Assembly (NCBI GenBank): GCA_021324975.1
Contig: JAJPIA010000101.1
Span: 13,924-77,923, forward strand
Direction: 5' to 3'
DNA from: Bacillota bacterium
GTDB lineage: Bacteria; Sysuimicrobiota; Sysuimicrobiia; Sysuimicrobiales; Segetimicrobiaceae
DNA: 64,000 nt
Part shown: in pieces, positions 9,001 through 37,602 of the stretch
How the letters are laid out: every line of letters starts with the position of its first letter
Position numbering within the stretch: the stretch's first letter is position 1
Translations under genes and position numbers: made by a program
The notes under the pieces: model-generated
The model's input: the letters and a program-made list of their open reading frames with translations, nothing else
What the model was told of the DNA's origin: nothing
The model's database searches: none

Positions 9001-10473
9001 GTGAACGATCCGCTCTTCGCTACGATCGGCGAGCTGCACGCCGGGCTGCGGCGCCGCCGCATCTCGTCGGTCGAGCTCACGCGGCTTGCGCTGGATCGCC
9101 TGTCCACGCTGGGCCCGCGGTACAACGCCGTGGCGCGCGTGCTCCCGGAGCACGCCCTCGAGGAGGCCCGAAACGCGGACCGGATGCTGCGGCGCGGGCG
9201 GACCACGAGCCCGCTCACGGGGATCCCGTACGGCGCCAAAGACCTCGTGGCGCTGCGCGGCGTGCCGACCACGTGGGGCGCCAAACCGTATGCGCGCCAG
9301 GTCTTCGACTACGACGCGGCCGTCATCGAGTCGCTCCGCCGGGCCGGCGCCGTCCTCGCGGCCAAGCTGGCCATGATCGAGCTCGCCGGCGGCGGCGGTT
9401 ACCGCTATCCGTCGGCGTCCCTCACCGGCCCCGCCCGCAATCCGTGGAACCCCGATCACTGGACCGGGGGTTCGTCGAGCGGGACGGGCGCCGCGGTGGG
9501 GGCCGGCATGGTCCCGTTTGGGATCGGCTCGGAGACCTCCGGCTCGATCCTCTCGCCGTCGTCCGGGTGCAACGTGACGGGGCTCAGGCCCACCTACGGG
9601 CTCGTCAGCCGCTACGGCGCGATGGCGTTGTCATGGACAATGGACAAGCTCGGGCCGATGTGCCGCAGCGCCGAGGACTGCGGCTTGGTGCTCGAGGCCA
9701 TCGCCGGACCGGACCCACGCGACCCCGGGTCGGCCGGCCGCACCTTCCGCATGAACCGGCGTCCGATCAGGCCGGGCGCGCTCCGCGTGGGGTACGCGCC
9801 GGTGGACTTCGAGGAGACCGCCCAGCCGTCGATCCGCGCCGCGCTCGCCGGCGCCCTCCGCGCGTTTCGCCGCCTCGGCGTCCGGCTGCGGCGGATGGAG
9901 CTCCCGCGCCTTCCGATCGATTCGGCCGCCCGGCTCATTATCCGCGCCGAAGGGTCCACGATCTTTCAGGATCTGATCGAAAGCGGGCGCGTCTACGAGC
10001 TCGCCGATCGCCGTCAGGCCGTCGGGTTGGTCGCGGGGCTCGAGGTGCCGGCGCGCGATTACCTCAATGCGATGCGGGTGCGCAGGCTGGTCCAGGAAGC
10101 CTGCGCGCAGCTCCTGCGCGAGGTCGACGTCATCGTGGCGCCCGCCCGGCCCGGTCCGTCCCCGCGGATCGACGAACCGATCGACCCGGAGTGGCGTCCC
10201 GCCCGTCCCAGGCACCGCGCCGCGGCCGGGGCGCGGGCGTTCCCGCCGGCGCGGGGGAACGCGGCGTTGACGGCCGCCGGCAACCTCGCGGGCCTCCCCG
10301 GCCTGTCGCTGCCGTGCGGATTCAGCGCGGATGGGCTGCCGGTGGCGGTGCAGCTCGTCGGCCGGCCGTTCGAGGACGCGACGGTGATCGATCTGGGGCG
10401 CGCGTTTCAAGGCGCCACGGACTGGCACCGACGCCAGCCGGCGATCCCGCCGGTGCGCGGGCGGAGCCGGTAG
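9001..10473 (+). CDS. amidase (amidase-signature family, GatA-like)
   Basis: Amidase-signature motifs GGSSSGTGAAVGAG and GSETSGSILSPSS with the Ser-cisSer-Lys core. GTG start. Confidence 0.9.
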   Translation: MNDPLFATIGELHAGLRRRRISSVELTRLALDRLSTLGPRYNAVARVLPEHALEEARNADRMLRRGRTTSPLTGIPYGAKDLVALRGVPTTWGAKPYARQVFDYDAAVIESLRRAGAVLAAKLAMIELAGGGGYRYPSASLTGPARNPWNPDHWTGGSSSGTGAAVGAGMVPFGIGSETSGSILSPSSGCNVTGLRPTYGLVSRYGAMALSWTMDKLGPMCRSAEDCGLVLEAIAGPDPRDPGSAGRTFRMNRRPIRPGALRVGYAPVDFEETAQPSIRAALAGALRAFRRLGVRLRRMELPRLPIDSAARLIIRAEGSTIFQDLIESGRVYELADRRQAVGLVAGLEVPARDYLNAMRVRRLVQEACAQLLREVDVIVAPARPGPSPRIDEPIDPEWRPARPRHRAAAGARAFPPARGNAALTAAGNLAGLPGLSLPCGFSADGLPVAVQLVGRPFEDATVIDLGRAFQGATDWHRRQPAIPPVRGRSR

Positions 10474-10513
10474 TGGCGGCCTCCTCGACCGGGGTGACGC
10501 GGGATACGTTCGC

Positions 10514-12259
10514 ATGACGCTGCTGGTGCACGAGCGGATCCCGAGGACGCTCGACCGGTTGCTCGAGCACCTGCGTGACGATGATCTGCGCGGCGCCCTG
10601 GTGCAAGCGTGGCTGTTCGAAGGTGCTCCGGCCCGCCGCGCCGCCGAGACCACGCTCAACGCGGCCGGAGTCCGCGCCCGCCTGCGGAGCGCCTACAAGC
10701 CGCTCGTACACTACTTCATGGAAGAGGTCAGGATCTCGGACCTGCGGCGAGCGAGGATCCGGTATCCCGTGCACGAGCTGGCGAGCCCGGAGCGGTTCCT
10801 CGTGGAGGCGTATCCCCTCGCGGCGATGCTGTCCGGCATCGACGCCCGCTTCATCCCGGCGGGACCCACGCTGAGCTATGGGGTCGAGCTCGAAGACCGG
10901 CACGGCGCCCTGACCACCAGCGATGTCCGGGTCCCCTGCCGCGTGGGTGACGACCATCTGGGCGAGCGCACGCTCGCGCCCTGCGGGTGGCTGCGCATCA
11001 CCGGTTCGCACAACGGGCGCCGCGACGTCGACGAACCGCTCGCGACCGAATACGAGGCCGTCTATCGCGCGGTCATCGCCGCCGTGCGCGCGTATCCCTG
11101 GCGCGAGCGCGAGCCGTATTTCGACCGCTTGGTGATCCAGGCCGCCATCCCGGATGCCGAGCAGCGGTTGCCCTACGGCGACGAATGCGCGAGCACATTC
11201 GAGGCCCTGCATGAGGATATTTACTTCTCGCTCCTCGAGCTGCTGCGGCGCCACGCGGGCCGCGCGCCGGACGAACGGGCCGGGCAGCCGGGACAGATCG
11301 TGCCCGACATCCGGCGCGCCGTGGACACGCCGGAAGTCCGCGTGGCGCTGGAGCCCGCCGGGGCGGACGAGGAACCGGGTCCCGCCGTCCCTCTCGAACG
11401 CGCCGATCACGCCCTGCCCCTCGCGCAGATCGCGGATGAGCTTGCGCGGCTCCCCGGGGAGCGATTCGCGGCAACGTCGCGACAGGGCCGGACGGTGGCA
11501 GGAATCTACCGCGCCGGGACGCGTCCGGCCATCCTGATCACCGCAGGCCAGCACGCCAATGAGACCTCGGGCGTCGTCGGCGCGCTGCGGGCGGCGCACC
11601 GCCTGGCCGCGGCGCCCGGCGCGCACTTCGCGTTGATCCCGCTGGAGAATCCCGACGGATACGCGCTGCACCGCCGGCTTTGCGCCGTGCATCCGCGGCA
11701 CATGCACCACGCGGCGCGATACACGGCGCTCGGGGACGACCTGGGGGCAAGGGCCCAGGAGCCCTGGTACGAGAAAGGCGCACGTCTCCAAGCGCAGCGG
11801 CTCGCGCGCCCGGCGCTGCATGTCAACCTCCACGGATATCCCGCCCACGAGTGGACGCGCCCGTTCTCCGGGTACCTCCCGCGCGGCTTCGAGCGGTGGA
11901 GCGTCCCCAAGGGGTTTTTCCTGATCGTCCGCTACCACCCGCACTGGGCCGATCGCGCCCGCGAGTTTCTGGCCCGGCTCACGCGCAGGCTCGCGGATGT
12001 CCCCGGCCTCACGCCGTTCAACCAAACCCAGCTCGCGACGTATCGGGCCCACGCGGGTGAGCCGGCGTTCCCGATCTACCATGACGTCCCGTGCGACATC
12101 ACGGAGGACGCGAACGCCGCGACGCCGCTCGTGCTCATCACGGAGTTCCCGGACGAGACGATCTACGGCGACGTGTTCGTCCTCGCGCACACCGTGCAGA
12201 TGGAGACGGTGCTCGCCGCCGAGGAGATCCACGCGGCCCTCGAGGGCGCGGGCGGCTGA
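10514..12259 (+). CDS. M14-like zinc carboxypeptidase / succinylglutamate desuccinylase-aspartoacylase superfamily protein with a long N-terminal domain of unknown function
   Basis: A central HxxE zinc motif (AILITAGQHANETSGVVGAL...IPLENPDGY) and a downstream His (NLHGYPAHEW). The roughly 320 aa N-terminal part has no motif I recognise. Confidence 0.6.
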   Translation: MTLLVHERIPRTLDRLLEHLRDDDLRGALVQAWLFEGAPARRAAETTLNAAGVRARLRSAYKPLVHYFMEEVRISDLRRARIRYPVHELASPERFLVEAYPLAAMLSGIDARFIPAGPTLSYGVELEDRHGALTTSDVRVPCRVGDDHLGERTLAPCGWLRITGSHNGRRDVDEPLATEYEAVYRAVIAAVRAYPWREREPYFDRLVIQAAIPDAEQRLPYGDECASTFEALHEDIYFSLLELLRRHAGRAPDERAGQPGQIVPDIRRAVDTPEVRVALEPAGADEEPGPAVPLERADHALPLAQIADELARLPGERFAATSRQGRTVAGIYRAGTRPAILITAGQHANETSGVVGALRAAHRLAAAPGAHFALIPLENPDGYALHRRLCAVHPRHMHHAARYTALGDDLGARAQEPWYEKGARLQAQRLARPALHVNLHGYPAHEWTRPFSGYLPRGFERWSVPKGFFLIVRYHPHWADRAREFLARLTRRLADVPGLTPFNQTQLATYRAHAGEPAFPIYHDVPCDITEDANAATPLVLITEFPDETIYGDVFVLAHTVQMETVLAAEEIHAALEGAGG

Positions 12260-12290
12260 CGGCGCGGTCCCGCCTCGGGGATCGTCGGCG

Positions 12291-12752
12291 CTAGGCGACC
12301 TGCACGATCATCTCGATCTCGACGGCGATGTCGAACGGCAGCGCCGCCATGCCGACGGCCGACCGGGCGTGGCGCCCGCGGTCGCCGAACACCTGGACGA
12401 GCAGGTCTGAGGCGCCGTTGATGACCTCGGGCTGCTGCAGAAAGTCCGGCGTGCTGTTGACCATGCCGAGGAGCTTGACCACGCGCTGCACGCGATCGAG
12501 GTCGCCGATCACCTCGCGCAGCGACGCGAGGCAGTTGAGCATCACGAGCCGCGCCGCCTCGTAGCCCTCGGTCACGGAAAAGTCCCGGCCCAACTTGCCG
12601 CGATACGTGAGCTTCCCGTCCTTGACGGGTCCGTGACCGGACACGAACACCAGGTCGCCGGCGCGCACCGCGCCGACGTAATTCGCGACCGGCGCGGGCG
12701 CCGCCGGTAGGACGAGGCCCATGACACTGAGCTTCTGCTCGATTTGGGACAC
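12291..12752 (-). CDS. RidA/YjgF family reactive-intermediate deaminase
   Basis: Typical RidA length and motifs (GDLVFVSGHGP...YEAARLVMLNCLASL...PFDIAVEIEMIV). Confidence 0.9.
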   Translation of the reverse strand: MSQIEQKLSVMGLVLPAAPAPVANYVGAVRAGDLVFVSGHGPVKDGKLTYRGKLGRDFSVTEGYEAARLVMLNCLASLREVIGDLDRVQRVVKLLGMVNSTPDFLQQPEVINGASDLLVQVFGDRGRHARSAVGMAALPFDIAVEIEMIVQVA

Positions 12753-12847
12753 GGGGAATCCTCCACGCGGGCCGTGTCGGTGGATCTATCGCGGCGGTTC
12801 ACGTTCCACGTGCCGCCGGCGCGTTCCTGGGGGATGCCGGCCGGCGC

Positions 12848-14293
12848 GTGGAGAACCGACCGATGCGGACCTTGCGCCATGCCCCGACCGGGGAGGAAGA
12901 ATCCGTGGACACGGACCTCTGCTTTCTGCCGGCCACCGCCCTCAGCGAACGGATCCGGCGGCGCGACGTCTCGCCGGTCGAGATCGTGACCGCCCTGCTC
13001 GAGCGCATCGACCGGTACAACGGCGTGCTCTTTAGCTACATCACGGTCTGCGCCGACGCCGCGCTCGCCGCGGCCCGCGAGGCGGAGCGCGAGATCACGG
13101 CCGGCCGCCGGCGCGGGCCGCTCCACGGGCTCCCGATCTCGCACAAGGACATCGTGTTCACGCGCGGCGTGCGGACGACATGCCATTCCCGGACGATGCT
13201 CGACGTCGTTCCCGACGCCGATGCCACCGTGGTGCGCCGCCCCGCCGAAGCCGGGATGATCCTCCTCGGGAAGACGAACACAACGGAGTTCGCGATCGGC
13301 ACGATGGACGTCTTTGGCACCTCGCGGACGCCTTGGAACCCGGCGTACTATTCGGGCGGGTCGAGCGGCGGCGCGGGCAGCTCGCTGGCCGCGGGGCTGG
13401 CCGTGGCCGCGACGGGCTCGGATACCGGCGGGTCGATCCGCATCCCCGGCGCCCTGTGCGGGATCGTCGGCCTCAAGCCGACGTACGGCCGGGTCAGCCG
13501 CCACGGGGTGTTTCCGCTCAGTTACAGCATGGACCACGTGGGGCCCATGTGCCGGACCGTCGGGGATTGCGCCCTCCTCCTGGGCGCGCTCGCGGGCCGC
13601 GATCCGCTCGACCCCACGTCGTCATCGCCCCCGGTGCCGGATTACGCGGCCGCCCTTGCGGGCGACATCCGAGGCCTGCGCCTCGGCGTGCCCCGGCAGC
13701 ACTTCTACGATCATCTCGATCCCGGGGTGGATCGCGCGGTGCGCGCGGCGCTGCGCCACCTCGAATCGCTCGGCGCCGTGCCGGAGCCGCTGGACCTCCC
13801 GCGGGCGTCCGAGGTCGGCGCCGTCGGGTGGGCTCTGCTGGCCGCGGAGGCGTTCGCGGCCCACGCCGCGCTGCTGCGCAAGCGCTCCGCGGACTACGGT
13901 GTCCGAGCGCGCCAGCGCATCGCGGGGGGCGCGTTTCTCACGGCGGCGGAATACCAGCAGGCGGCGCAGATCCGGGGGCTCTGGATGGGCGAGGTCGGCG
14001 CGGCGTTGCAACGCGTGGACGCCATCGTGACCCCGACGACGCCGTTTGCCGGCATCTCCGTCGAGGCGCAAAATAGCAAGCCGCCGGACACGACACGGAA
14101 CACCATCCCGTTCAACCTCACGGGCCACCCGGCCCTCACGCTACCCTGCGGCTTTACGGACGACGGCCTCCCCGTCGGACTGCAACTCATCGGGCGCGCG
14201 TTCGACGAGGCGATGCTGTTCCGGATCGGCGCCGCGTATGAGCACTCCACGGAGTGGCACACGCGACGTCCGGCATTGGAGGTGCGGGCGTGA
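12848..14293 (+). CDS. amidase (amidase-signature family)
   Basis: Motifs GGSSGGAGSSLAAG and GSDTGGSIRIPGALCG. The start is either the GTG at 12848 or the ATG at 12863. Confidence 0.9.
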   Translation: MENRPMRTLRHAPTGEEESVDTDLCFLPATALSERIRRRDVSPVEIVTALLERIDRYNGVLFSYITVCADAALAAAREAEREITAGRRRGPLHGLPISHKDIVFTRGVRTTCHSRTMLDVVPDADATVVRRPAEAGMILLGKTNTTEFAIGTMDVFGTSRTPWNPAYYSGGSSGGAGSSLAAGLAVAATGSDTGGSIRIPGALCGIVGLKPTYGRVSRHGVFPLSYSMDHVGPMCRTVGDCALLLGALAGRDPLDPTSSSPPVPDYAAALAGDIRGLRLGVPRQHFYDHLDPGVDRAVRAALRHLESLGAVPEPLDLPRASEVGAVGWALLAAEAFAAHAALLRKRSADYGVRARQRIAGGAFLTAAEYQQAAQIRGLWMGEVGAALQRVDAIVTPTTPFAGISVEAQNSKPPDTTRNTIPFNLTGHPALTLPCGFTDDGLPVGLQLIGRAFDEAMLFRIGAAYEHSTEWHTRRPALEVRA

Positions 14294-14472
14294 TCGCGCT
14301 TACCAAGGAGTGGCTCCGGGCCGAGGCTGCCTCCCACGGCCTCGCGTTGACGGAGACGGACGTCGACGCGATCTATGAGCGGCTCGTTGAAATCAAGACG
14401 GCGCTCACCGTCCAACGGCCCGAGGACACCGCGACGCTGGAGCCGCCGTACCGCTTCGCGCCGCCCGGCTGA
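14290..14472 (+). CDS. small GatC-like / AtzG-like (DUF4089-type) protein, putative amidase partner
   Basis: GTG start overlapping the amidase stop (GTGA). The about 60 aa product reads VIALTKEWLRAEAASHGLALTETDVDAIYERLVEIKTALTVQRPEDTATLEPPYRF, resembling the helical GatC N-terminal region. The track lists a longer version from 14254 that lies inside the amidase. Confidence 0.45.
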   Translation: MIALTKEWLRAEAASHGLALTETDVDAIYERLVEIKTALTVQRPEDTATLEPPYRFAPPG

Positions 14473-14475: not shown

Positions 14476-14697
14476 ATGGGGCGCGCGCGGGGATTCACGC
14501 TCGTCGAGATGATGGTCGTGCTGGCGATCCTGGCGATCGTGGTGGCCGCCGGCTTGTACATCGCCGCGCGCCTGCGGCCCAGCAGGCCCGCGGCCGGGCA
14601 CGCGCTCGCCCGGCCGGGATCGATCGTCCCGCAGCCGACGACCTGGGCCGGCCCCGCCTGTCAGGAAGACGGGCGCCCGGCTGCCGCGATCACCTGA
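14476..14697 (+). CDS. prepilin-type N-terminal cleavage/methylation domain protein (type IV pilin-like)
   Basis: MGRARGFTLVEMMVVLAILAIVVAAGLYIAA is a canonical class-III signal with G/FTLxE and a hydrophobic helix. It overlaps the 3' end of the convergent lyase gene by 37 nt, and its context is odd. Confidence 0.4.
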   Translation: MGRARGFTLVEMMVVLAILAIVVAAGLYIAARLRPSRPAAGHALARPGSIVPQPTTWAGPACQEDGRPAAAIT

Positions 14698-16163
14698 TCG
14701 CACCGGCCCCGCAGCACGGCGCGGCTTGACTCGAGGCGCTCCCGGGCCGCGGCCAGCCACCGCTCCACGCCCGCCAGCCCGGCCGCGGCCGCGTCGAGCT
14801 CCGCGTCGATCGCCGTAGGGCCGGGACCGCCGATGCCCCGTCGCGCCGCCACGAACGCGCGCGCATCGAGAAGCGCCTGCAGCTCCGCGGTCGGGAACGC
14901 GAGCGGCCGTCCGAGCACGGTACCGCTCACATCCCGCATCAACGATTCCGTCCACATGCGCGGATCGGGCACGCGTTGCACCATCGCCGAGACGACGGCA
15001 TGCGCCTGCCGCTGTGATGTCCCGTGCCGGCGCACGATCGCGTCCATGAGCTCCGTCGCGGTCGCACCCGAAGCCACGACGTCGTCCGGCGGCACGCCGG
15101 GACCGATGGCCATCGATCCCAGTGCCAGGCCGAGGAGCTGCGCGGTGTCCGTGGCGTCGTCCAACGTGCGCCAGAGGTCCACCTGCAGCTCGGATGTCGC
15201 GCGGTTGTCGTCCTCGAACGGCGTCGCCGCGACCCCGGCCACCTGTCCGGCGAGCACGCCGGCCGCGCGCGCGGCGCGCGCGCGGAGGTGCTCGACGAAC
15301 ACGAGGTTGCGTTTCTGCGGCATCATGCTGCTCACTTGGACGAACCCGGGATCCAGCGTGACGACCGGCGGCGACCCAGCGGCCCACAGGTCGAGCGTGG
15401 CCAACATGCGACTCGCACCGGCGACGGCCACGCCACACGCGGCGAGCGTCGCGAGCGCGTAGTCGGCCCCGGCGACGGCATCGTACGTGTTCTCGACCAG
15501 CCCGTCGAACCCCATCAGCCGCGCCAGTTCGGTCCGGTCGAGCGGAAACGCGGTGCCGGCCAAGGCGCACGCGCCGAGCGGCGACCGGTTTACCTCTTCG
15601 TACGCGAGCCGGTAGCGGGCGAGGTCGCGGAGCACCGCATCGGCGTAGGCGGCGAGCACGTGGCCGACGGTCGTCGGCTGCGCGGGCCGGCCGTGGGTGC
15701 GCGCCACCACGAGCGTGTCGCGGCCGCCGCGGGCACACGATGCGGTCGCGCGGCCGAGCGCGACCGTAGCACCGACGACCATCAAGAGCCGGGTGCGCAC
15801 GACAACCCGGAAGGCCGCCGCGTCCAGGTCGTTCCGGCTCCGCGCGAGCTGCAGGTTCCCCGCGATGTCGGCACCGAGGCGATCGATCAGCGCGCGCTCG
15901 AGCGCGAAGTACACGTCCTCGACGTCGGGATCGTACTCGAGGGAAGCAGCCGGCACCGCATCCAGCGCATTCAACCCTTCGAGGAGGCGGGCCGCGTGCT
16001 CCGGCGAGAGCACGGCCGCGGAAGCGAGCGTCACCACGTGCGCGCGGCTCGCATCGATCAAGACCGGGTAGAGATCGACCTTCCACGCGTCGAAGATCGG
16101 CTTGAGGACCGTGGCGCGGTAGCGGTCTCTGAGGTCGTGGCGCCCCGCGTGTGCGTCGTCCAC
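14661..16163 (-). CDS. argininosuccinate lyase family protein (class I fumarase/aspartase lyase superfamily)
   Basis: Lyase-1 signature SSMMPQKRN; SRNDLDAAAFR and the N-terminal LYPVLIDASRAHVVTLAS resemble ArgH. The track ORF extends to 16322 through Arg-rich junk; I placed the start at the in-frame GTG at 16163 (VDDAHAG), giving 500 aa. Confidence 0.8.
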   Translation of the reverse strand: MDDAHAGRHDLRDRYRATVLKPIFDAWKVDLYPVLIDASRAHVVTLASAAVLSPEHAARLLEGLNALDAVPAASLEYDPDVEDVYFALERALIDRLGADIAGNLQLARSRNDLDAAAFRVVVRTRLLMVVGATVALGRATASCARGGRDTLVVARTHGRPAQPTTVGHVLAAYADAVLRDLARYRLAYEEVNRSPLGACALAGTAFPLDRTELARLMGFDGLVENTYDAVAGADYALATLAACGVAVAGASRMLATLDLWAAGSPPVVTLDPGFVQVSSMMPQKRNLVFVEHLRARAARAAGVLAGQVAGVAATPFEDDNRATSELQVDLWRTLDDATDTAQLLGLALGSMAIGPGVPPDDVVASGATATELMDAIVRRHGTSQRQAHAVVSAMVQRVPDPRMWTESLMRDVSGTVLGRPLAFPTAELQALLDARAFVAARRGIGGPGPTAIDAELDAAAAGLAGVERWLAAARERLESSRAVLRGRCDQVIAAAGRPSS

Positions 16164-16228
16164 GATGCGGCCTCCGTTTCCGCGCGCAAACGGCACCGGC
16201 TGCGCGGCCGGCGGCGGGCCGGTTGCGC

Positions 16229-17218
16229 CTACGGCAGGCTCTGCAGCACCTGCCAATCCACGTTGCCGCCGCTGAGCACGACGGCGACTCGGGCGTCGGG
16301 CTCGACGGGGAGACGCCCGCACAGGAGGGCGGCCAGCCCCGCGGCGCCGGCCGGTTCGACGACGAGCTTGGCGTACTCCAACACCGCCTTCATCGCCTCG
16401 CGGATCTCCGTGTCGGACACCAGGACGACCTCATCGACGAACCGCCGCACCGCGGCCAACGTCAGCTCCCCGGCCATCGGCGCTGTGAGACCGTCCGCGA
16501 TCGTGTCGATCGAGTGGAGCCGCGTGACGGCGTTGCGCCGGAGCGCGGTCCACAGCGTCGGTGCCCCCTCGGGCTCCACGCCGAACACGCGTGCCCCCGG
16601 CCGACTCGACTTGACGGCCGAGGCCACACCGGAGATCAAGCCCCCGCCGCCGATCGCGACAACGACCACGTCCACGTCCGGGAGATCCTCCACGATCTCG
16701 AGTCCCACCGTGCCCTGGCCGGCGATGATGTGCGGATCGTCGAACGGGTGCACGAGCGTGAGGTTGCGGGCGTCGCGCAGCTGATGCACCCGTTCAAACG
16801 CCTCGTGCATCGTGCCGCCGAGGACGACCTCGGCGCCGTAGGCCCGGCACGCCGCAACCTTGAGCAGGCTGGCGTGCGCCGGCATGACGACCGTCGCATG
16901 CAGCCCCTCCGTCGCCGCGCCGTACGCGAGGGCCTGGGCGTGGTTGCCGGCTGAGATCGTCACGAGGCCGCGGCGTTTGTCCTCGCCGGAGAGATGGCGG
17001 AGCTTGTTGAGCACGCCGCGCGGCTTGAACGATCCCGTCTTCTGAAGATTCTCGGCTTTGAAATAGAGGCGGACTGCCGCCCGTTCGCCCAGGATTCTCG
17101 AGCTCAACAGCGGCGTACGGTGGACGCGTCCCTGGATGACCTCTCGGGCCGCCAGGATGTCGTCCAGGGTGGGAAGTGTCGGGGTCAGCGCTGTTGCGAC
17201 GCCCGAAACGCCGCCCAC
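16229..17218 (-). CDS. threonine/serine dehydratase (PLP-dependent, fold-type II)
   Basis: PLP-lysine motif FKAENLQKTGSFKPRG, with GGGGLISG and the ISAGNHAQALA glycine loop. The track ORF 16229..18079 is a read-through artefact. A GTG at 17218 gives 329 aa and overlaps the upstream M20D gene by 34 nt. Confidence 0.85.
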   Translation of the reverse strand: MGGVSGVATALTPTLPTLDDILAAREVIQGRVHRTPLLSSRILGERAAVRLYFKAENLQKTGSFKPRGVLNKLRHLSGEDKRRGLVTISAGNHAQALAYGAATEGLHATVVMPAHASLLKVAACRAYGAEVVLGGTMHEAFERVHQLRDARNLTLVHPFDDPHIIAGQGTVGLEIVEDLPDVDVVVVAIGGGGLISGVASAVKSSRPGARVFGVEPEGAPTLWTALRRNAVTRLHSIDTIADGLTAPMAGELTLAAVRRFVDEVVLVSDTEIREAMKAVLEYAKLVVEPAGAAGLAALLCGRLPVEPDARVAVVLSGGNVDWQVLQSLP

Positions 17219-18366
17219 AGCTCGTCCGACGCGCCGGGGCGGTACATCACGTCGACCGCCGTCATGGCCAGCCCCTTGGCGGCATTGAGCATTGCGGCGT
17301 ACCCCCGCTCGGACCGCGCCGCCTCGCGAAACTCCGGCGTATGTCCCGCGGCGTCGTCCGTGATCGCCAGGTAGGGATGGATCGTCGGCGCGACCAGGCT
17401 GACGTTGCCGATGTCGGACGACCCGACGCCGCCGTGCTCCGGCGGCGCCTCGCCGCGGATGCCGAGCCGCGCCAGGTTGTCGCCGAAGTAGCGCGCGAGG
17501 ACGGGGTTGTTGTTGCGCTCCGCGTACACGAGCCCCTGCGCAAACTCCACCCGGGCGCCCGTGGCCGCGGCGGCGCCCTCGGCACACCCCTTGACTTTCG
17601 CCATCACGTCGACGAGCGCGGCACGCGTGTTGGCACGCACGATAAACTCGCCCTGCGCCAACGCCGGGACGACTTTGGGCGCGTCCCCGCCCTTTGTGAT
17701 GATCCCGTGGATCCGGACGTCGCTCGTGACGTGCTGCCGCAGCGCATCGATCGCGTGGTACGTGAGCAGTAGCGCGTTGAGCGCGTTGACGCCCTTCTCC
17801 GGCGCGGCGGCGGCGTGCGACGACTTGCCGTGGAACGTGATCGTGAGCCCCTGCGCGGCGAGCGCGCCCCGGACCCACCAGTTGTTGCGCGACGGGTGAA
17901 ACATCATCGCCGCGTCCACGCCCTCGAAGACGCCCTGCTCCACCATCGGGATCTTGCCGCCCGTGGTTTCCTCGGCCGGCGTGCCCAGCACGGTCAGCGT
18001 CCCGGGCAGCGTGGGAACCGCGCGGTGCAGCGCGACGGCCGCGCCGACGCTCGCCATGCAGATCAGGTTGTGGCCGCACGCGTGCCCGACGCCCGCGAGC
18101 GCGTCGTACTCGGCGATCAGCGCCACATGAGGTCGAGCGCGCTCGCCCTTGGTCGCCGCGCGAAATGCGGTCGCCATGCCGGCGATCGGCTGCGTCACCG
18201 CAAACCCGTGCTCCCGCAGCAACCCGGTGAGCCAGCGCGCCGCCTGGCGCTCCTGCAGCCCGACCTCGGGCGTCTCGTGGATCCGCGCGCTCAGGCCGAC
18301 GAAGGTCTCCCGCATCGCATCGACCTGGGCGCAGACGTTGTCCTTCAGCGCATCCACATCATGCAT
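17185..18366 (-). CDS. M20D family amidohydrolase
   Basis: Motifs HACGHNLICMASVGAAVAL and GTPAEETTGGK; 393 aa. Confidence 0.85.
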   Translation of the reverse strand: MHDVDALKDNVCAQVDAMRETFVGLSARIHETPEVGLQERQAARWLTGLLREHGFAVTQPIAGMATAFRAATKGERARPHVALIAEYDALAGVGHACGHNLICMASVGAAVALHRAVPTLPGTLTVLGTPAEETTGGKIPMVEQGVFEGVDAAMMFHPSRNNWWVRGALAAQGLTITFHGKSSHAAAAPEKGVNALNALLLTYHAIDALRQHVTSDVRIHGIITKGGDAPKVVPALAQGEFIVRANTRAALVDVMAKVKGCAEGAAAATGARVEFAQGLVYAERNNNPVLARYFGDNLARLGIRGEAPPEHGGVGSSDIGNVSLVAPTIHPYLAITDDAAGHTPEFREAARSERGYAAMLNAAKGLAMTAVDVMYRPGASDELWAAFRASQQR

Positions 18367-18448
18367 TACATCGCCACCTCGGGGGAGATCGCCGGATTAC
18401 GCATAGCCTTCTCCGGCGCCGCGACGCGCCCCTGTGGGATCCGGCCGC

Positions 18449-19195
18449 TCACATGCTGCGTCCGCCGGTCACCTCGATCACCGCGCCCGTGACGAAGCTC
18501 GCCATCTCGCTGGCGAGGAACAGCGCGACGGTCGCGACCTCCTCCGGACGCCCGTTCCGGGCGAGCGGCGTGTCCTTGGCGCGCTGGGCCATCGCTTCCT
18601 CGCCCATCGCGCGCGTCATCGGCGTGTCGATGAAGCCGGGCTGGATGGCGTTCGCCCGCACGCCGTACCGCGCGTACTCCCGCGCCGTCACCTTGGTGAG
18701 CGCGACGATCCCGGCCTTGGCCGACGCGTAGTTCGCCTGCCCGAAGTTGCCGATCTTCCCGGAAATCGAGGAGAGGTTGACGATCGCGCCCCGCCCGGCC
18801 TTGCGCATCCGCCCGCCGACGGCGCGGGTGCACAAAAAGGTGCCGCGGAGGTGCACGTTCAACACCAGGTCCCACTGCTCGTCGGTCATCTTCGCGATCG
18901 TGACGTCGCGAGTCAGCCCGGCGTTGTTCACGAGCACGTCGATCCGGCCAAACATCTCCTCGGCCGCGGCCACGCCGGCCTCCACCTGGCCGGCGTCCGA
19001 GACGTCCACCCGCGCCGCTCCCGCGCGCCGGCCGAGCGCCCGCACGGCCTCCACCGTCTCGCCTGCGCCGGCTTCGTTGACGTCGAAGACGAAGATGTCG
19101 CTGCCCTCCCGGGCGAACAGCAGCGCTACGGCCCGGCCGATCCCGGATCCCGCGCCCGTGATCAGCGAGACTCGATCGCGCAGCAACGGCTCCAC
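18449..19195 (-). CDS. SDR family oxidoreductase (FabG-like)
   Basis: TGAGSGIGRA Rossmann motif, NNAG, and the YASAKAG catalytic YxxxK. Confidence 0.9.
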   Translation of the reverse strand: MEPLLRDRVSLITGAGSGIGRAVALLFAREGSDIFVFDVNEAGAGETVEAVRALGRRAGAARVDVSDAGQVEAGVAAAEEMFGRIDVLVNNAGLTRDVTIAKMTDEQWDLVLNVHLRGTFLCTRAVGGRMRKAGRGAIVNLSSISGKIGNFGQANYASAKAGIVALTKVTAREYARYGVRANAIQPGFIDTPMTRAMGEEAMAQRAKDTPLARNGRPEEVATVALFLASEMASFVTGAVIEVTGGRSM

Positions 19196-19196
19196 G

Positions 19197-19649
19197 TCAT
19201 CCTCCCTTCGGCGAGCGCACCTTGATCAGGAGGGGCACGTTGCCCTCCTGCACCACGTCGCCGCGCTGATTGACGAGCTCGATGCGGCGCTCGATGAGCC
19301 CCCGGTCGCCCGCGGACGTCAGGCGCTTCCCCGTGATCTGCATCCGGACGTGGACGGTGTCGCCGATAAGCACCGGCCGCTTGAAGGACCACGTCAGCCC
19401 GGGAACCGCGATCGTCGTCTCGCCGAACAGGCCGAGGCGCACGACCAGCCCCATGCCGATCGCGATCCCGAGATTCCCGTGGGCGATTCGCTGCCCGAAC
19501 GGCATCGTCTTCGCAAACTCAGCGTCGGTGTGGATGGGATTCCAGTCGCTGGACAGCGACGCGAACGTGACGACGTCGGCTTCGGTGATCGTGCGGCCGG
19601 CGGTCTCAAAGACCTGTCCGACCTCGACGTCTTCGTAGTAGAGGCTCAC
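19197..19649 (-). CDS. MaoC-like (R)-specific enoyl-CoA hydratase / hot-dog dehydratase
   Basis: SSDWNPIHTD...AHGNL hot-dog hydratase motif; its stop is 1 nt before the SDR start. Confidence 0.85.
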   Translation of the reverse strand: MSLYYEDVEVGQVFETAGRTITEADVVTFASLSSDWNPIHTDAEFAKTMPFGQRIAHGNLGIAIGMGLVVRLGLFGETTIAVPGLTWSFKRPVLIGDTVHVRMQITGKRLTSAGDRGLIERRIELVNQRGDVVQEGNVPLLIKVRSPKGG

Positions 19650-20000
19650 CGGCGTCCCTCCGCTGATGCCCGCGCGATGTCCGCAACGCGGGCCGGCGTG
19701 CGACGATGCCCATGCAACGAGTCACCCGGCCCCGGCGATCCCGGCGATGCGGGGCCTTGTGCACGCGGTTGAATTAGGGTACGCTTCTCCCTTGGTAACG
19801 GGCCGGTCCTCCGCTGCGCGAGCGCCATTGCAGGCCGGCGGGATCAACGGCCGGCCACGGGCATAGTCCGTCCGCGCAGGACGCCACGGCGGGCACCGAA
19901 CGGAGAAATAGGCCTGCCCGCACGGGCGGCCGTGGGCCGAGCCACGCTCGAACGAGCGCCCCTACGCCGCGGCGCCGTAGACGCACGACGGAGGGGCGGC

Positions 20001-20996
20001 ATGGAGACCGGATCCACGATTGTCGGCCTGGGGCGGTACGCCCCGGAACGGACGCTCGCCAATCACGACCTGGCTCGTATGGTCGATACCACGGACGGGT
20101 GGATCCGGAGGCATACCGGGATCGAGGAGCGCCGGATCGCCGCCGCCCATGAAGCAAGCTCGGATCTCGCCTATGGCGCGGCCAGGGAGGCGCTCGAGGC
20201 GGCCGGCACCGGCCCGAGCGACGTGGACCTCATCATCGTCGGCACGGCCACGCCCGACATGCCGTTCCCCAACGTGTCGTGCCTGCTACAAGACCGCCTC
20301 GGCGCGCGCAGTATCGGCTGCCTGGACGTATCGTGCGCGTGCTCGAGCTTCGTGTACGGGTTGAGCGTCGCGCACGGCGCAATCGTTTCCGGCCAGGCCG
20401 ACACGGTGCTCGTCGTCGGCACAGACACGCTCTCCCGCATCACCAATTGGCGAGACCGGTCGACGTGCGTCCTGTTTGGGGACGCCGCAGGGGCGGCGGT
20501 GCTCCGACCCGCGAAGCCGGGGAGTGGATTCTTGTCGTTCGCGCTCGGAGGATCTGGCCAGGGACGGCATCACCTCCATCTCAAGGCGGGAGGCAGCCGG
20601 CACCCGGCCTCGCATGAGACGGTCGCGCGCGGCGAGCACTTCCTATGGATGAACGGGCCGGAGGTCTACAAGTTCGCGGTCCAAACGATGCCAAGGGCGG
20701 CCGCGGACGCGCTGCGGCGCGCCCGGCTCGCCCCCGACGACGTCGACTTCGTCATTCCGCATCAGGCGAACCTGCGGATCATTCACTCCGTCTCCGCCCG
20801 GCTGGGTGTGCCCATGGAGAAGTTTTTCGTGAACGTGCAGCGGTACGGCAACACGTCCGCGGCGTCGATCCCGGTGGCGCTCTACGAGGCGGTCGGCGCG
20901 GGGCGCGTGAGCCCGGGCGATGTCGGCGTTATGGTGGCCTTTGGCGCCGGCTACACGTGGGGCGCGTGCACGATCCGCTGGGGCGGCGCCGCCTAA
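20001..20996 (+). CDS. fabH: 3-oxoacyl-ACP synthase III
   Basis: METGSTIVGLGRYAPERTLANHDL..., the active-site Cys context CSSFVYGL, and HQANLRI/GNTSAASIP motifs. The ATG is at 20001; the track start at 19932 is upstream junk. Confidence 0.9.
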   Translation: METGSTIVGLGRYAPERTLANHDLARMVDTTDGWIRRHTGIEERRIAAAHEASSDLAYGAAREALEAAGTGPSDVDLIIVGTATPDMPFPNVSCLLQDRLGARSIGCLDVSCACSSFVYGLSVAHGAIVSGQADTVLVVGTDTLSRITNWRDRSTCVLFGDAAGAAVLRPAKPGSGFLSFALGGSGQGRHHLHLKAGGSRHPASHETVARGEHFLWMNGPEVYKFAVQTMPRAAADALRRARLAPDDVDFVIPHQANLRIIHSVSARLGVPMEKFFVNVQRYGNTSAASIPVALYEAVGAGRVSPGDVGVMVAFGAGYTWGACTIRWGGAA

Positions 20997-21200
20997 GCCG
21001 CAGCCGCGCGAACGGCTACTTCGGTCGGGATGTCGATCCGGGGTCCTTCGTGCGACGCGGTTTCCGACCATGCGGAGGCGCGCGAAGCGTGCAGGAGCGG
21101 CCTGCGGCCACCGGGAAAGCGACGAACGCAGGATCCTTCCGACGTCGAAGCAGCCCGGAGCGCAAACGTGACGACCCGCCGCTGTCAACGACACCTGCCG

Positions 21201-21671
21201 ATGTTCAGGGCATCCGCCATGGCGATGGGCGCCGCCATCGCGCTGCTCGTCGCCTCGCCCGCAGGTGCTGCCCCGTCGGGCCCGGCGAAGTGCACACTGA
21301 CGCCGTCCGACGCCGGCGATCCGGCGTACCGGCCAAACGCCCCGGTTCGTTCGTCCGTGGGCACGGGGTTCGTGTTGTCGGGGGTGGTGCGGTCCGGCAT
21401 CGACTGTAAGCCGATCCCCCGCGCGCGCGTCGAACTCTGGCTGCGGGGCCCCGATGGCCAGTACGATGACGCGCATCGGGCGACCGTGATCACGGACGCC
21501 GCCGGCAGATATCGCCTCCAGAGCAATTTCCCCGGAGGCGGCGATTACTTCCAACCGCACATTCACATCCGCGTCGCCGTCTCCGGCTTCCGCCCGCTCG
21601 TGACGGTCTTTCTACCGCACCCCGGCACCCGGGAAGGGACGATGGATCTCGTGCTCGAGCCGGAGATGTAG
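21201..21671 (+). CDS. small secreted intradiol-dioxygenase-like / carboxypeptidase-regulatory-like domain protein
   Basis: Signal peptide MFRASAMAMGAAIALLVASPAGAAP, then GTGFVLSGVVRSGIDCKPIPRARVELWLRGPDGQY...TDAAGRYRLQ. This is the beta-sandwich core seen in intradiol dioxygenase-like proteins, but the product is only about 156 aa. Confidence 0.55.
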   Translation: MFRASAMAMGAAIALLVASPAGAAPSGPAKCTLTPSDAGDPAYRPNAPVRSSVGTGFVLSGVVRSGIDCKPIPRARVELWLRGPDGQYDDAHRATVITDAAGRYRLQSNFPGGGDYFQPHIHIRVAVSGFRPLVTVFLPHPGTREGTMDLVLEPEM

Positions 21672-21824
21672 TGGCGAATCCTTACGACGCCGGCCGGCGC
21701 ACGCGGGCACTACATGTTCAATACAGCAGCGCAGCCGGCAGGGGCGAACTCTACCGGCTGCGCTTATTCGCTTGGTCGCGCGGTTCGTTGCGGATTGTCG
21801 TCAACATCCAGCCGTGCGATCTGC

Positions 21825-22013
21825 TTACTGTCCGCTGCCGTCGCCCTGCGCATTACCCCGGAAATAGTCCGGCGTCGAGCCTGCGCCACCGGCGGTTGCA
21901 CCGATGCTGACGACGCTATTGTCGGCCAACGCCGCGCCGGGCACCAGAGCCACAACCCCCACCAACACTAACCCAGCCAGTGCACCGGCGACGACCTTCC
22001 ACAACCGCTCCAT
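21825..22013 (-). CDS. small secreted/membrane-anchored Gly-rich peptide (62 aa), hypothetical
   Basis: MERLWKVVAGALAGLVLVGVVALVPGAALADNSVVSIGATAGGAGSTPDYFRGNAQGDGSGQ. A strong GGAGGTG RBS lies 7 nt upstream of the ATG at 22013. It is directly downstream of the DCC gene on the same strand. Confidence 0.45.
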   Translation of the reverse strand: MERLWKVVAGALAGLVLVGVVALVPGAALADNSVVSIGATAGGAGSTPDYFRGNAQGDGSGQ

Positions 22014-22236
22014 CGTGATCACCTCCCCTGAATTTTTGGTGCACGTACATCGTACTCGGCCACGGCCACCCCCACCTTGATCCTCGTCACACTCCCGCGT
22101 GATCTTGCTCACACAGATGACCAACGGGCGTCGAACCCGACGCAGGGGATCCTGCGCGGGCTCTTCGTCGCGATATTGTTCGTGACCGTCGCGACCGAGG
22201 ATATGCGCAGACTCGCGCCGCGGCCTGCGGAAGGGA

Positions 22237-22626
22237 TTACGTCAGAAAGCGGTGCTCTAGCTCCGGGGCAGGCACGCGACACGTCGCCGACTTCCCGAAC
22301 CATGCATAGCGATGACGTGCCACCCATCGATATACGGCATCTCGAATAGGCCGCGGAATGATGCGAAGGAACCCAATGAGCCGCCACGGCGGCGGGAGGC
22401 GCGCGCACACCTCAAGGATGGCCGCCGAATCAGTATAGACGCGACGACCCGCGACGACGACAATGCCCGCGAGGACGGGCGCGGGCAGGTGCAACTCCTC
22501 GAGTATCGCGCGCCCCCGCGCAGACTGCTGCGCGCCAAAGACAAACACCCCGAACCGATCGTGATCGATGACGAAGTTCACCCACGCATTGCAGAGGTTG
22601 CACACGCCGTCGAACAACACCACCAT
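22237..22626 (-). CDS. DCC-family thiol-disulfide oxidoreductase (DUF393)
   Basis: MVVLFDGVCNLCNAWVNFVIDHDRFGVFVF...QS..G..IL is the DUF393/DCC1 CxxC N-terminus. The start is ambiguous (ATGs at 22626, 22695 or 22731); I chose 22626, which has a GAGGG RBS. Confidence 0.8.
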   Translation of the reverse strand: MVVLFDGVCNLCNAWVNFVIDHDRFGVFVFGAQQSARGRAILEELHLPAPVLAGIVVVAGRRVYTDSAAILEVCARLPPPWRLIGFLRIIPRPIRDAVYRWVARHRYAWFGKSATCRVPAPELEHRFLT

Positions 22627-22696
22627 CGCACCCTCAGGAGGCGCTTGGATGCGGCCGGCTCGTCCGACCGAGCCCGGCGACTTCGCGTGACTCATG

Positions 22697-23509
22697 TTAA
22701 TGGACAAGCACCCCGCCGAATTTCTGCGCAAAATAATATACCGCTGGATACGTGGCCGTAAACGACCAGAAGAAGATGTTCAGCCCCATGCATAATCCAA
22801 TCGTGAAGTGAAACGCCGCCCCGGCTGCGAAAAACCCCAGCGCGACGCGCGGGTCGATCCAACAGACGACCGGGCCACAGCATTCATAACACAAGACACC
22901 CCAGCAGGCAGCGCGGGCCGCCCAACGGTGCCGCGAGAAAAATCTCGCCAGTGATGGCGCGCCATATGCGTGCGTATTCAAGATGCCGGCGATGGCCTTG
23001 CCGCTGCGCCACACCGGGGAGATCGCCTTCGCGACGCCCGAGGTGAGATAGGCGACGACGAGCTGGCCGGCCACGAACCCGAACACGATCGTCAGCATGC
23101 GGCTGGTCGGGTGCAGATAGTACACGAAGAGAGCGGCCAGCACAAGCAGCATCATCTGATCCGAGCCGTCCGTGCCGTACTGGTTTCGGAACAAGAACAA
23201 CATGTGCACGATCAGCATGATGCCGACAGCCACCACCATCCACGCGGAGGCAAGCCCGGAGAGCACCAGGAGCGCCGCCAACAGTTGCAGGCAGACCAGC
23301 ACAAGGATTCCCGGGCAGGACAGCAACACGTTCAGCAACGCGGCCCCGACGCCGCGTGCCGTCCACCGAGCATTGGTCGAGAGAACGCGCCAATCGTACA
23401 ATCCGGCCGGCGAGAACAAACGGCGGGCCACGAGGGTTTCCGCCGCCTGGATCGCGACGCCGATGGAGATGAGAACCTGCGTGGTGCGGAGCAGCGCCGC
23501 CGAGTCCAT
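22697..23509 (-). CDS. HTTM domain membrane protein (vitamin K-dependent gamma-carboxylase-like)
   Basis: Several TM segments and the conserved HTTM block FRNQYGTDGSDQMMLLVLAALF. ATG at 23509 (MDSAALL...); the track start at 23632 overlaps the upstream gene. Confidence 0.8.
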   Translation of the reverse strand: MDSAALLRTTQVLISIGVAIQAAETLVARRLFSPAGLYDWRVLSTNARWTARGVGAALLNVLLSCPGILVLVCLQLLAALLVLSGLASAWMVVAVGIMLIVHMLFLFRNQYGTDGSDQMMLLVLAALFVYYLHPTSRMLTIVFGFVAGQLVVAYLTSGVAKAISPVWRSGKAIAGILNTHAYGAPSLARFFSRHRWAARAACWGVLCYECCGPVVCWIDPRVALGFFAAGAAFHFTIGLCMGLNIFFWSFTATYPAVYYFAQKFGGVLVH

Positions 23510-23514
23510 TGTGT

Positions 23515-24039
23515 TCAGATGCGGTGGAAGCGGGACAGGAATACTACGTCGCACGCCCGCGCGGACCCGCGTCCGTAGGAACGGGCCACGGCAAACTGCG
23601 TGTACACGGCGGATGACGCATGCGGCTGGCACGTGACGAAATTCAGCAGGGCGAGGAATCCGGTGTCGATCAACATGAAGTCCGGATCCTCACGGTGGTA
23701 CGGAGCGGAGTGCCGTAGCTCGTTGCCGAGATCCGAAAGCCCTTTTTGGAAGCGCTTACGCGGGTTCCACAGCGATCGGAGCGGTCCCGGGTGAAACGGC
23801 ACCTCTCGCCAGCGCATGACGTCTCCACACGCCAGTTTGTCGCGGTACAGAAGATGGGTATCGGTCGTCGCGGGGTTCGGGGCAAAGAACGTCCACGCCG
23901 GTATCATCGCGAAGTCGTCGTACCGCTTGAGAGCCAGGACCCAGCCCTTCAAGCGGAACTGGTAGGCTATCGTTACGAGGAGCCAGACCGCGAACAAAAC
24001 GGCGGCAACTGCTTCGGTCCCGTCCGGGCGACCAAGCAC
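23515..24039 (-). CDS. hypothetical membrane-associated protein, upstream partner of the HTTM/DCC pair
   Basis: 174 aa with an N-terminal TM helix (AVAAVLFAVWLLVTIAYQF), no motif I recognise, and a stop 6 nt before the HTTM start. Codon usage is coherent with its lower-GC neighbours. Confidence 0.5.
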   Translation of the reverse strand: MLGRPDGTEAVAAVLFAVWLLVTIAYQFRLKGWVLALKRYDDFAMIPAWTFFAPNPATTDTHLLYRDKLACGDVMRWREVPFHPGPLRSLWNPRKRFQKGLSDLGNELRHSAPYHREDPDFMLIDTGFLALLNFVTCQPHASSAVYTQFAVARSYGRGSARACDVVFLSRFHRI

Positions 24040-24048
24040 GATCGCCCC

Positions 24049-24468
24049 TCACGACGACTGCGAGACCGAAGCCGCGCGGGCTTCGAGAAGCTCCTGCACC
24101 GACGCGTTCGGGTCAACGGGTTGAGTCCGGGGCCGCAGGCCGCGCTCGCCCGGAGTACAGGCCCGGACTTCGTTTCGACCTTGCGCGTACCGCGCAGCGT
24201 GTGCTTCGGCAATTTTGGCGTGTGCTTCGGCGCGGGCGGCGTGCTCGTGCGCCCGCTGGGCCATTCGTCTCGCTGCCACAGCGAGTTGCCGAGCTTCTTC
24301 GGCTTCTTCGGCCTCTTCGGCTTCCTGGGCGGCCTGACGGCGGTCTTGAGCGAGGACGTCCCCGACGGTCAGATACTCTTTCTCGGGCGGGAGCACCCCG
24401 GCAATGTCTCGCTCGGCGTTGGTCTCTCCCGTTGCACCGGGTGCGTTTGTTCCAGAAGGACTCGCCAT
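24049..24468 (-). CDS. hypothetical coiled-coil / low-complexity protein
   Basis: The ATG at 24468 (MASPSGTNAPG...) gives about 140 aa rich in Ala/Glu/Gln with an (EEA)n repeat. It may be spurious. Confidence 0.3.
   Translation of the reverse strand: MASPSGTNAPGATGETNAERDIAGVLPPEKEYLTVGDVLAQDRRQAAQEAEEAEEAEEARQLAVAARRMAQRAHEHAARAEAHAKIAEAHAARYAQGRNEVRACTPGERGLRPRTQPVDPNASVQELLEARAASVSQSS
24294..24325. repeat. short tandem hexanucleotide repeat (cttcggc-type), encoding EEAEEAEEAEEA on the minus strand
   Basis: Seen directly: cttcttcggcttcttcggcctcttcggcttcc. Confidence 0.6.
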
Positions 24469-29893: not shown

Positions 29894-29957
29894 CGCTCAC
29901 GACGCACGGCCGCGCCAATCCAAGACTGTCCCGTCGTGAGTCGATCCTATTGGGTAG

Positions 29958-30653: not shown

Positions 30654-30779
30654 ATCCCCCTCTAGCCCGCATGGCTTATCGCCAATTATACACTAGGCCT
30701 GGGAACTAGGCCTGGGACATCGGCGCCGCCGGTCTGTATCGGTATCGCGTCGGGGCCAACATGCGCGGGCCGCGGATGC

Positions 30780-31970: not shown

Positions 31971-31977
31971 GGCCCGC

Positions 31978-37601: not shown

Positions 37602-37602
37602 C

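Follow-up and report, generated by a model that had tools for sequence, protein, structure and literature searches.

We analysed a 64-kb stretch of DNA (64,000 nucleotides, hereafter the window) from contig JAJPIA010000101.1 of a Bacillota bacterium (GenBank assembly GCA_021324975.1), which carries a run of five genes on the minus strand (19649-14661). In order, the open reading frames (ORFs) encode a MaoC-type hydratase, a FabG-like short-chain dehydrogenase/reductase (SDR), an M20D amidohydrolase, a pyridoxal phosphate (PLP) enzyme of the threonine/serine dehydratase type (PALP), and an ArgH-like C-N lyase. Analysis of the run and its relatives revealed that the five-gene unit is not conserved and that family cut-off, motifs and tree all place the lyase outside the genuine ArgHs. 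The reading that we favour, with moderate confidence, is a lineage-specific mosaic operon, probably co-transcribed and catabolic, that joins two modules found apart in relatives.

The domains of the five proteins were assigned with Pfam and NCBIfam models. The G+C content of the window is approximately 70%, and the raw ORF lists are crowded as a consequence; a third-position GC filter retained most genes of an earlier reading made from the letters of the DNA alone (the sequence-only reading), and the third-position GC bias is strong in those of the five ORFs that were measured. The sequence-only reading had described five tightly packed co-directional genes of these five families, GTG starts for some of them, and the motif SSMMPQKRN in the lyase. 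The ORFs, the Pfam and NCBIfam matches and the measured gaps bear out the packing and all five family assignments, the GTG codons are the only workable starts, and the motif is present in the translation. MaoC and SDR are separated by 1 nt, SDR and M20D by 82 nt, and PALP and the lyase by 65 nt, with an overlap of 34 nt between M20D and PALP. The MaoC gene starts with GTG with GGAGGG upstream, the M20D gene with ATG, and the lyase gene with GTG with GGAGG ahead, giving a 500-residue product identical to database protein P0001. PALP starts at GTG 17218, inside M20D. Comparison with the closest relative, locus L004, revealed that PALP there starts at an ATG (MPTLPTLDD...) behind a spacer of about 100 nt with a Shine-Dalgarno sequence (L004:8879-8982). 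At positions 17185-17218 of the window, the spacer and the ATG are gone and the M20D stop runs directly into ...PTLPTLDD, leaving the GTG within M20D as the only available start, which lengthens PALP by 11 residues. The 329-residue form is also found on independent JGI contigs (P0143), and the junction is therefore no assembly error and the overlap is real; the two sequences indicate that it is a deletion derived relative to L004. No terminator-like site was found in any intergenic gap of the run, and the two weak matches, both within coding sequence, equal the number expected by chance. The small gaps, the overlap and the lack of intergenic terminator-like sites suggest that the five genes are probably co-transcribed.

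Comparison of the gene neighbourhoods revealed that all five genes, together with a FabH-type gene divergent from MaoC, are kept only in L004, where the lyase is 89% identical. The metagenome-assembled genome (MAG) SMAG_U11806 (GCA_035632615.1) carries the two parts on different contigs. On contig 381 (L087), the divergent FabH gene is followed by MaoC-SDR-M20D-OYE-DUF302-PALP, and this run ends at a convergent hydrolase and carries no lyase. On contig 122 (L007), the lyase, 74% identical, lies behind the gene of a NagC/Mlc-type ROK regulator, with an amidase (amidase 2 below) and a Rid protein downstream. In the sequence available around the lyase in L001, L002, L006 and L007 (up to 10 kb on each side), none of PALP, SDR and MaoC is present.

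Outside the window, the lyase is accompanied by a different set of genes. A ROK gene stands beside it in L001, L006, L007, L173 and Georgenia subflava, joined by an importer and a creatininase where the contig reaches (not in L006, where a ROK-like C-terminal fragment lies directly upstream of the lyase), and the ROK-lyase arrangement is also found in L002. In L001 and L007, a set of creatininase, permease, ATP-binding cassette (ABC) ATPase and solute-binding protein (SBP) is divergent from ROK-lyase, and in L173, a deeper clade member with 54% identity, ROK-lyase-SBP-ABC-permease-creatininase form a single tight co-directional run. In Georgenia subflava, whose lyase has 40% identity and stands outside the clade, the genes again form one tight run, ordered ROK-SBP-ABC-permease-creatininase-lyase-ROK kinase, and the SBP and the permease are 57-58% identical to their counterparts in SMAG_U11806. 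No description of this set was found in the searchable literature, and it may represent an uncharacterised system of uptake and catabolism.

These neighbourhoods bear on the proposal of the sequence-only reading that the five enzymes form one coherent pathway for a single conjugate of an N-substituted or beta-hydroxy amino acid. In such a pathway, M20D would strip the acyl or aminoacyl group, the lyase would free fumarate from an N-(1,2-dicarboxyethyl) intermediate, PALP would deaminate the hydroxy or amino acid, and MaoC and SDR would take the acyl part. Every enzyme class can be assigned some role in it, the packing is tight and co-directional without terminator-like sites between the genes, and the junction is kept in two lineages approximately 6-11% apart at the protein level. 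However, no relative below 89% identity has the unit, PALP and the lyase are found on different contigs in SMAG_U11806, the lyases of L001, L006 and L007 have no PALP, SDR or MaoC in the up to 10 kb available on each side, and the lyase has conserved operon partners of its own elsewhere. We consider a single pathway unlikely, and the run argues weakly for reading the operon as one. The proposed substrate class, N-substituted or beta-hydroxy amino acids, is plausible for the individual enzymes.

The second line of evidence concerns the lyase itself, which the sequence-only reading had suspected not to be ArgH and not to lie in an arginine-biosynthesis context; the phylogenetic placement and, over the ORFs scanned, the search for arg genes agree with both suspicions. 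Firm clustering within ArgH, the outcome that this reading had named as its own refutation, is not what the tree shows. The protein belongs to the aspartase/fumarase superfamily, with a Lyase_1 domain, the SRND, TH and SSxMPxKxN regions and an all-helical fold. Its best NCBIfam match is the argH equivalog TIGR00838, with a score of 258.4 that falls below the cut-off of 279.5. The three solved ArgHs (E. coli, T. thermophilus and M. tuberculosis) all carry MPQKKNPD..E and PLAYN(K/R)D(L/M)QEDK, and the segments KKNPD..E and YN(K/R)D(L/M)QEDK are reported, from work on duck delta-2 crystallin, to line the arginine side of the ArgH site. At the first segment the lyase has KRNLV (KRNLVFVEH; MPQKRNLVFVEH), and at the second it has PFEDDNRATSELQ, with FEDDNRATSELQ at YN(K/R)D(L/M)QEDK. 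Among the 129 columns that are invariant in the three solved ArgHs, 59 are changed in the lyase clade, including Q113L, K285R, D288V, Y318D, N319D, D321R, Q323T and K326L, and neither KKNPD nor YNKDLQEDK occurs in any of the 120 top database homologs of the lyase. The fumarate-side and catalytic motifs (SRND, TH..AQP, the SS-loop SSxMPxKxN, Lys, Asn and Glu) are invariant in 33 relatives. In a neighbour-joining tree (100 bootstraps) with the three solved ArgHs and EDDS lyase as references, the lyase falls in a clade of 15 sequences (100/100), standing for 16 database proteins, and this clade nests in a large group with the motif MPQKRNPV.LEH (KRN-type) that is split from the three ArgHs and EDDS lyase in 99/100 bootstraps. 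None of the window ORFs that were scanned is an arg gene, and no arg gene was found in nine related loci.

A divergent but genuine argininosuccinate lyase of the host, located here by chance, would be consistent with TIGR00838 being the best NCBIfam match, just 21 bits under its cut-off, and with the retention of the catalytic Ser loop, His and Lys. It would also agree with the neighbourhood of the subclade P0013-P0016, in which the lyase lies between an Asp/Asn-tRNA synthetase gene and rimP-nusA-infB (L003:6558-11451; L172:6333-10979), with the synthetase gene overlapping the lyase in L172; this housekeeping context is unlike that of other clade members. We nevertheless regard a genuine ArgH as very unlikely, as the two segments invariant in the ArgHs of E. 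coli, T. thermophilus and M. tuberculosis are replaced, the tree splits the lyase from ArgH in 99/100 bootstraps, the protein has a C-terminal helix like that of EDDS lyase, and its conserved partners are an importer and a hydrolase instead of arg genes.

Among solved structures, the lyase scores highest by sequence against 6G3D and 6RX8 (192-194 bits), followed by the ArgHs of T. thermophilus (159), E. coli (144) and M. tuberculosis (139). The entries 6G3D and 6RX8, deposited as 'argininosuccinate lyase', are EDDS lyase, which converts N-substituted aspartates to fumarate and an amine (PMC6973171). A Foldseek search with the AlphaFold model of the lyase (pLDDT 93.6) ranked EDDS lyase first, with a TMq of 0.85-0.87 over approximately 500 columns including the C-terminal helix 449-496, and ArgH and the delta-crystallins gave a TMq of 0.75-0.82. 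The 50 best PDB matches listed by Foldseek all belong to EDDS lyase, the argininosuccinate lyases or the delta-crystallins. The higher PDB score made a specific relationship to EDDS lyase a candidate explanation, which was rejected, since the clade grouped with EDDS lyase in 0/100 bootstraps.

The lyase clade comprises 16 database proteins at at least 53% identity, after which identity falls to about 41%. A scan of 185,579 species-representative genomes gave 80 loci with one close relative of the lyase (L007), and the other 79 have no neighbours in common with the window except occasional SDR, ABC and amidase genes, and MaoC in three. A scan of metagenome contigs gave a further 80 loci, none above 38% identity and none a clade member. 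Most of the top database matches that bear a source name are annotated as argininosuccinate lyase, and by these counts the clade is rare and lies within a large uncharacterised radiation carrying that annotation. In three SAR202/Dehalococcoidia loci (L031, L042 and L079; approximately 9480-11140 in each), a MaoC-like gene lies directly upstream of a lyase homolog with 29% identity, and in L031 an amidase is additionally found downstream of the homolog.

The remaining four genes form a block with the divergent FabH. The translation of MaoC contains the hydratase-2 Asp/His motif SDWNPIHTDAEFA (SDWNPIH), and its orthologs in the same position are 93% (L004) and 86% (L087) identical. The SDR has the classical motifs TGxxxGIG and YxxxK, with orthologs of 94% (L004) and 82% (L087) identity. 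M20D matches both the catalytic (PF01546) and the dimerisation (PF07687) domain models, its top PDB matches are HmrA (3RAM, 243.6 bits) and the Xaa-Arg dipeptidase 7YH4 (232 bits), and its ortholog at the operon position in L087 is 87.5% identical. An M20 gene between a 581-aa protein and an amidase gene (amidase 1) in L001 and L006 was considered as an ortholog and rejected, because it is only 70% identical, against 87.5% for the operon-position copy in L087; it is probably a paralog. PALP shows the features of the threonine/serine ammonia-lyase family (fold-type II PLP enzymes): the PALP domain, SFKPRG with the Schiff-base Lys (SFKxRG), SAGNHAQ with Ala and not the racemase Ser, a Gly-rich phosphate loop, and TdcB (2GN0, 255 bits) as the best PDB match. 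Among the NCBIfam models TIGR01127 scores highest (352.3; cut-off 378.75), with only the catalytic part of the model covered; the protein falls below every equivalog cut-off tested (IlvA, TdcB, 3-hydroxyaspartate, EutB and BhcB) and has no ACT domain. The L087 ortholog is 85% identical, and PALP homologs elsewhere adjoin DUF302, peptide ABC transporters and peptidases.

The FabH gene is likewise divergent and adjacent to MaoC in L004 (91% identical) and L087 (84%), and the part of the block that is best conserved across the window, L004 and L087 is FabH together with MaoC-SDR-M20D. Directly beyond FabH, L004 and L087 carry genes of an acyl-CoA dehydrogenase, a mesaconyl-CoA-hydratase-like MaoC protein and a family III CoA-transferase. 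The same CoA-transferase/hydratase/acyl-CoA dehydrogenase trio is found in the window at 30780-33897, with sequence of lower G+C between it and FabH. This intervening part (approximately 21000-30700; G+C 0.62-0.66 against about 0.70), which separates FabH from the trio that abuts it in L087, holds an adenylate-cyclase/STAND-NTPase/TPR protein, a Crp-type regulator, a protein with weak PATR repeats and ORFs without family matches, and is probably an inserted island. The FabH and FabG matches, both above their NCBIfam cut-offs, and the conserved core that they form with MaoC and M20D would also suit a small module of the type II fatty acid synthesis (FAS-II) kind, in which FabH, FabG and MaoC make a special acyl chain and M20D, running in reverse like PM20D1, joins it to an amino acid. 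We consider such a module highly improbable: the block has no acyl carrier protein, ligase, enoyl reductase or exporter, the neighbours in relatives (acyl-CoA dehydrogenase, CoA-transferase and hydratase) are typical of degradation, and hydrolases and uptake systems dominate the surrounding 20 kb. The features discussed in the text are collected in Table 1.

Table 1. Positions and family matches of the five genes, of their neighbours in the window and of the lyase-linked gene set in relatives (window coordinates unless a locus is named)
Feature	Position	Strand	Match or occurrence
MaoC-type (R)-specific enoyl-CoA hydratase/dehydratase, 150 aa, first of the run	19197..19649	-	PF01575, 96.5 bits
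FabG-like SDR, 248 aa	18449..19195	-	adh_short_C2, 219.9 bits; NCBIfam NF004198 (FabG), 307.4 vs cut-off 296
M20D amidohydrolase, HmrA/PM20D2 (Xaa-Arg dipeptidase) type, 393 aa	17185..18366	-	TIGR01891, 192.6 vs cut-off 153.75
PALP, short Thr/Ser-dehydratase-type PLP enzyme, 329 aa, catalytic domain only	16229..17218	-	PF00291, 279 bits
ArgH-like C-N lyase, aspartase/fumarase superfamily, 500 aa, extra C-terminal helix	14661..16163	-	Lyase_1 PF00206, 99.6 bits
FabH-type KAS III, divergent from and adjacent to MaoC	19932..20996	+	PRK09352, 408.5 vs cut-off 249
73-aa ORF, prepilin-type N-terminal methylation motif GFTLVEMMVVLAILAIV	14476..14697	+	PF07963, 37.8 bits
Amidase 1, 581-aa M14/AstE-like protein, Rid2-type protein, amidase 2	9001-14293		Block kept in L001, L004, L006 and L007
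ROK, lyase, SBP, ABC ATPase, fused permease and creatininase set	L173:183-7694; L090:1975-10417; L001:3753-11500; L007:1126-8873		

From these sequences we infer the substrates, the co-transcription and the catabolic direction of the proposed mosaic operon. Its first module, MaoC-SDR-M20D-PALP with the divergent FabH, would break down an N-acyl amino acid or a dipeptide-like amide. M20D would cut the amide bond, the freed acid would be processed as a CoA thioester by (R)-specific hydratase and 3-hydroxyacyl dehydrogenase steps, and a freed Ser/Thr-type amino acid would be deaminated by PALP to a 2-oxo acid and ammonia. The trio of CoA enzymes on the FabH side and the neighbours of PALP homologs (DUF302, peptide transporters and peptidases) together suggest this combination of amide hydrolysis, CoA-dependent oxidation and deamination. 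The second module would be the lyase alone, which retains the fumarate-side machinery of the argininosuccinate lyase branch with a rebuilt amine-side pocket, and which most likely splits some N-substituted L-aspartate other than argininosuccinate into fumarate and an amine. Its ancestral partners would be the ROK regulator, the ABC importer and the creatininase-family hydrolase. In the lineage of the window and L004, a rearrangement would have set the lyase 65 nt behind PALP, and transcription from the upstream promoter probably continues into it there; the simplest history suggested by the neighbourhoods is that the lyase was joined to the PALP block solely in this lineage.

Several points weigh against the mosaic operon. 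The comparison uses few metagenome contigs of one poorly sampled lineage, and the argument from PALP and the lyase on separate contigs presupposes that the contigs of one MAG were binned correctly. Both the window and L004 keep the junction with tight spacing, and the lyase could now work in the same pathway. The steps of the first module are drawn from family-level chemistry alone; HmrA/PM20D2-type M20D enzymes are known as dipeptidases and not as N-acyl amino acid hydrolases, FabH is normally biosynthetic, and the block has no thiolase. In addition, the expression level of PALP is uncertain because its native start has been lost.

A bolder proposal, which we consider quite unlikely, is that the lyase clade with the ROK regulator, ABC importer and creatininase breaks down an N-substituted aspartate taken up from outside, by a route not described so far, and that the capture of the lyase by the window operon created a new five-step pathway. 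In that route, the enzyme of the creatininase type would first open the ring of a cyclic amide, such as a cyclised compound of the guanidino- or ureido-succinate type, before the lyase frees fumarate, an idea suggested purely by the pairing of the creatininase and lyase families. The window itself has two tandem creatininase-family paralogs, co-directional with a class A beta-lactamase-like protein and an Amidohydro_1 enzyme (35370-39352), and these paralogs are only 27-30% identical to the lyase-linked creatininase of relatives.

The 20 kb beside the operon encode three further M20 enzymes, two amidase-signature amidases and the 581-aa M14-like protein, together with a GntR regulator, AtuA, a family-5 binding protein and a Rid2-type protein in which the catalytic Arg is retained. 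The 581-aa protein has an HxxE motif in GQHANETSG and a weak match to the REP34 carboxypeptidase 4OKO. Within the conserved amidase/Rid2 block, amidase 2 is present only as a fragment in L004 and is absent from L006. The sequence-only reading had tied the Rid gene (12291) to enamine chemistry of PALP, a link that does not survive as specific, because L001, L004, L006 and L007 share the amidase/Rid/581-aa set whether or not PALP lies near it; Rid belongs to this separate module. An ORF of approximately 60 aa (about 14290-14472, plus strand) follows or overlaps the end of the amidase-signature gene that faces the Rid2-type gene, and the same placement recurs at L001:15033-15218 and at the locus of P0153. 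The small ORF behind amidase 2 matched nothing in Pfam, NCBIfam or the PDB; our guess, by analogy, is that it might be an AtzG/GatC-like partner subunit. The 73-aa ORF with the prepilin motif, which also occurs in L004 and L006, is convergent with the lyase, overlaps its last 37 nt and bounds the run on the 3' side, and no other pilus gene is found nearby. Further away, the gene of an XPB-type helicase (ResIII, XPB_DRD) precedes that of a DUF790 protein (39353-42026), which we take to be the known XPB-Bax1 helicase-nuclease pairing.

The interest of these results lies mainly in the ArgH-like lyase family, with its wrong annotation and its setting among importer, creatininase and ROK genes, and less in the five-gene run. 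The 120 top homologs lack the arginine-side motifs of ArgH, and yet most of the matches that bear a source name are annotated as argininosuccinate lyase; automatic reconstructions would therefore wrongly credit such genomes with a step of arginine biosynthesis. The repeated association of the family with importers and hydrolases points towards C-N lyase substrates not yet described, which are of practical interest because EDDS lyase, the nearest characterised enzyme, is a widely used hydroamination biocatalyst. The run also serves as a caution that tight packing in a high-GC soil genome is not by itself proof of a shared pathway.

Comparison with known systems places the PALP-lyase pair beside DabB/DabC, in which a PLP partner makes an N-(aminocarboxyalkyl)aspartate and DabC eliminates fumarate from it, giving 2,3-diaminobutyrate or 2,3-diaminopropionate (PMC10906522). 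In both cases a PLP fold-type II enzyme adjoins an ArgH-like lyase, and the DabC-type model PRK02186 matches the window lyase with 207 bits. A biosynthetic pair of this kind, with PALP forming an N-(amino-carboxyalkyl)aspartate by beta-replacement and the lyase releasing fumarate and a diamino acid or aminopolycarboxylate building block, is nevertheless hardly tenable and was rejected: DabB is a cysteine-synthase-type beta-replacement enzyme, whereas PALP is of the dehydratase type (TdcB 255 bits and IlvA-type models 250-350, against 66-91 for cysteine-synthase models); DabC carries an ATP-grasp domain, whereas the window lyase has none, and no Thr/Ser kinase, nonribosomal peptide synthetase (NRPS) or other biosynthetic gene lies nearby; the PRK02186 score is far under the cut-off of 625 and covers model positions 411-887 only; and the PALP/lyase adjacency is recent and not conserved. 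XcbC of the bacterial coenzyme M pathway (NF052535) is likewise an ArgH-like member of the aspartase/fumarase superfamily with a function other than that of ArgH, although its model scores only 194.6 bits on the window lyase, against a far higher cut-off of 575, and the neighbourhood has no further Xcb gene.

For the start of the run, the counterpart is the split MFE-2-like (R)-specific beta-oxidation pair, such as M. tuberculosis fabG4-htdX, in which the gene of a MaoC hydratase directly adjoins that of an SDR. The MaoC and SDR genes of the window likewise adjoin and are, with a gap of 1 nt, probably translationally coupled; the window SDR is a classical 248-aa FabG-like protein. For the lyase, ArgH (TIGR00838; PDB 1TJ7, 2E9F and 6IEM) has in common with it the superfamily and fold, SRND, TH..AQP, the SS loop with Lys and Asn, and the Glu, and the lyase differs in its added C-terminal helix and in having no arg genes among the ORFs scanned around it. 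EDDS lyase of Chelativorans sp. BNC1 (6G3D-6G3I, 6RX8) resembles the window lyase in its length of about 500 aa, in the long C-terminal helix that ArgH lacks, in the Ser-loop SSxMPQKxN and in the lack of the ArgH segment YNKDLQEDK. The two proteins are only 29-30% identical, however, and the amine-pocket residues D290 and Y320 of EDDS lyase are V and D in the window lyase. EDDS lyase has TQ where the window lyase retains the TH dyad of ArgH, and the 99/100 split leaves it with the ArgHs, with the window lyase on the other side.

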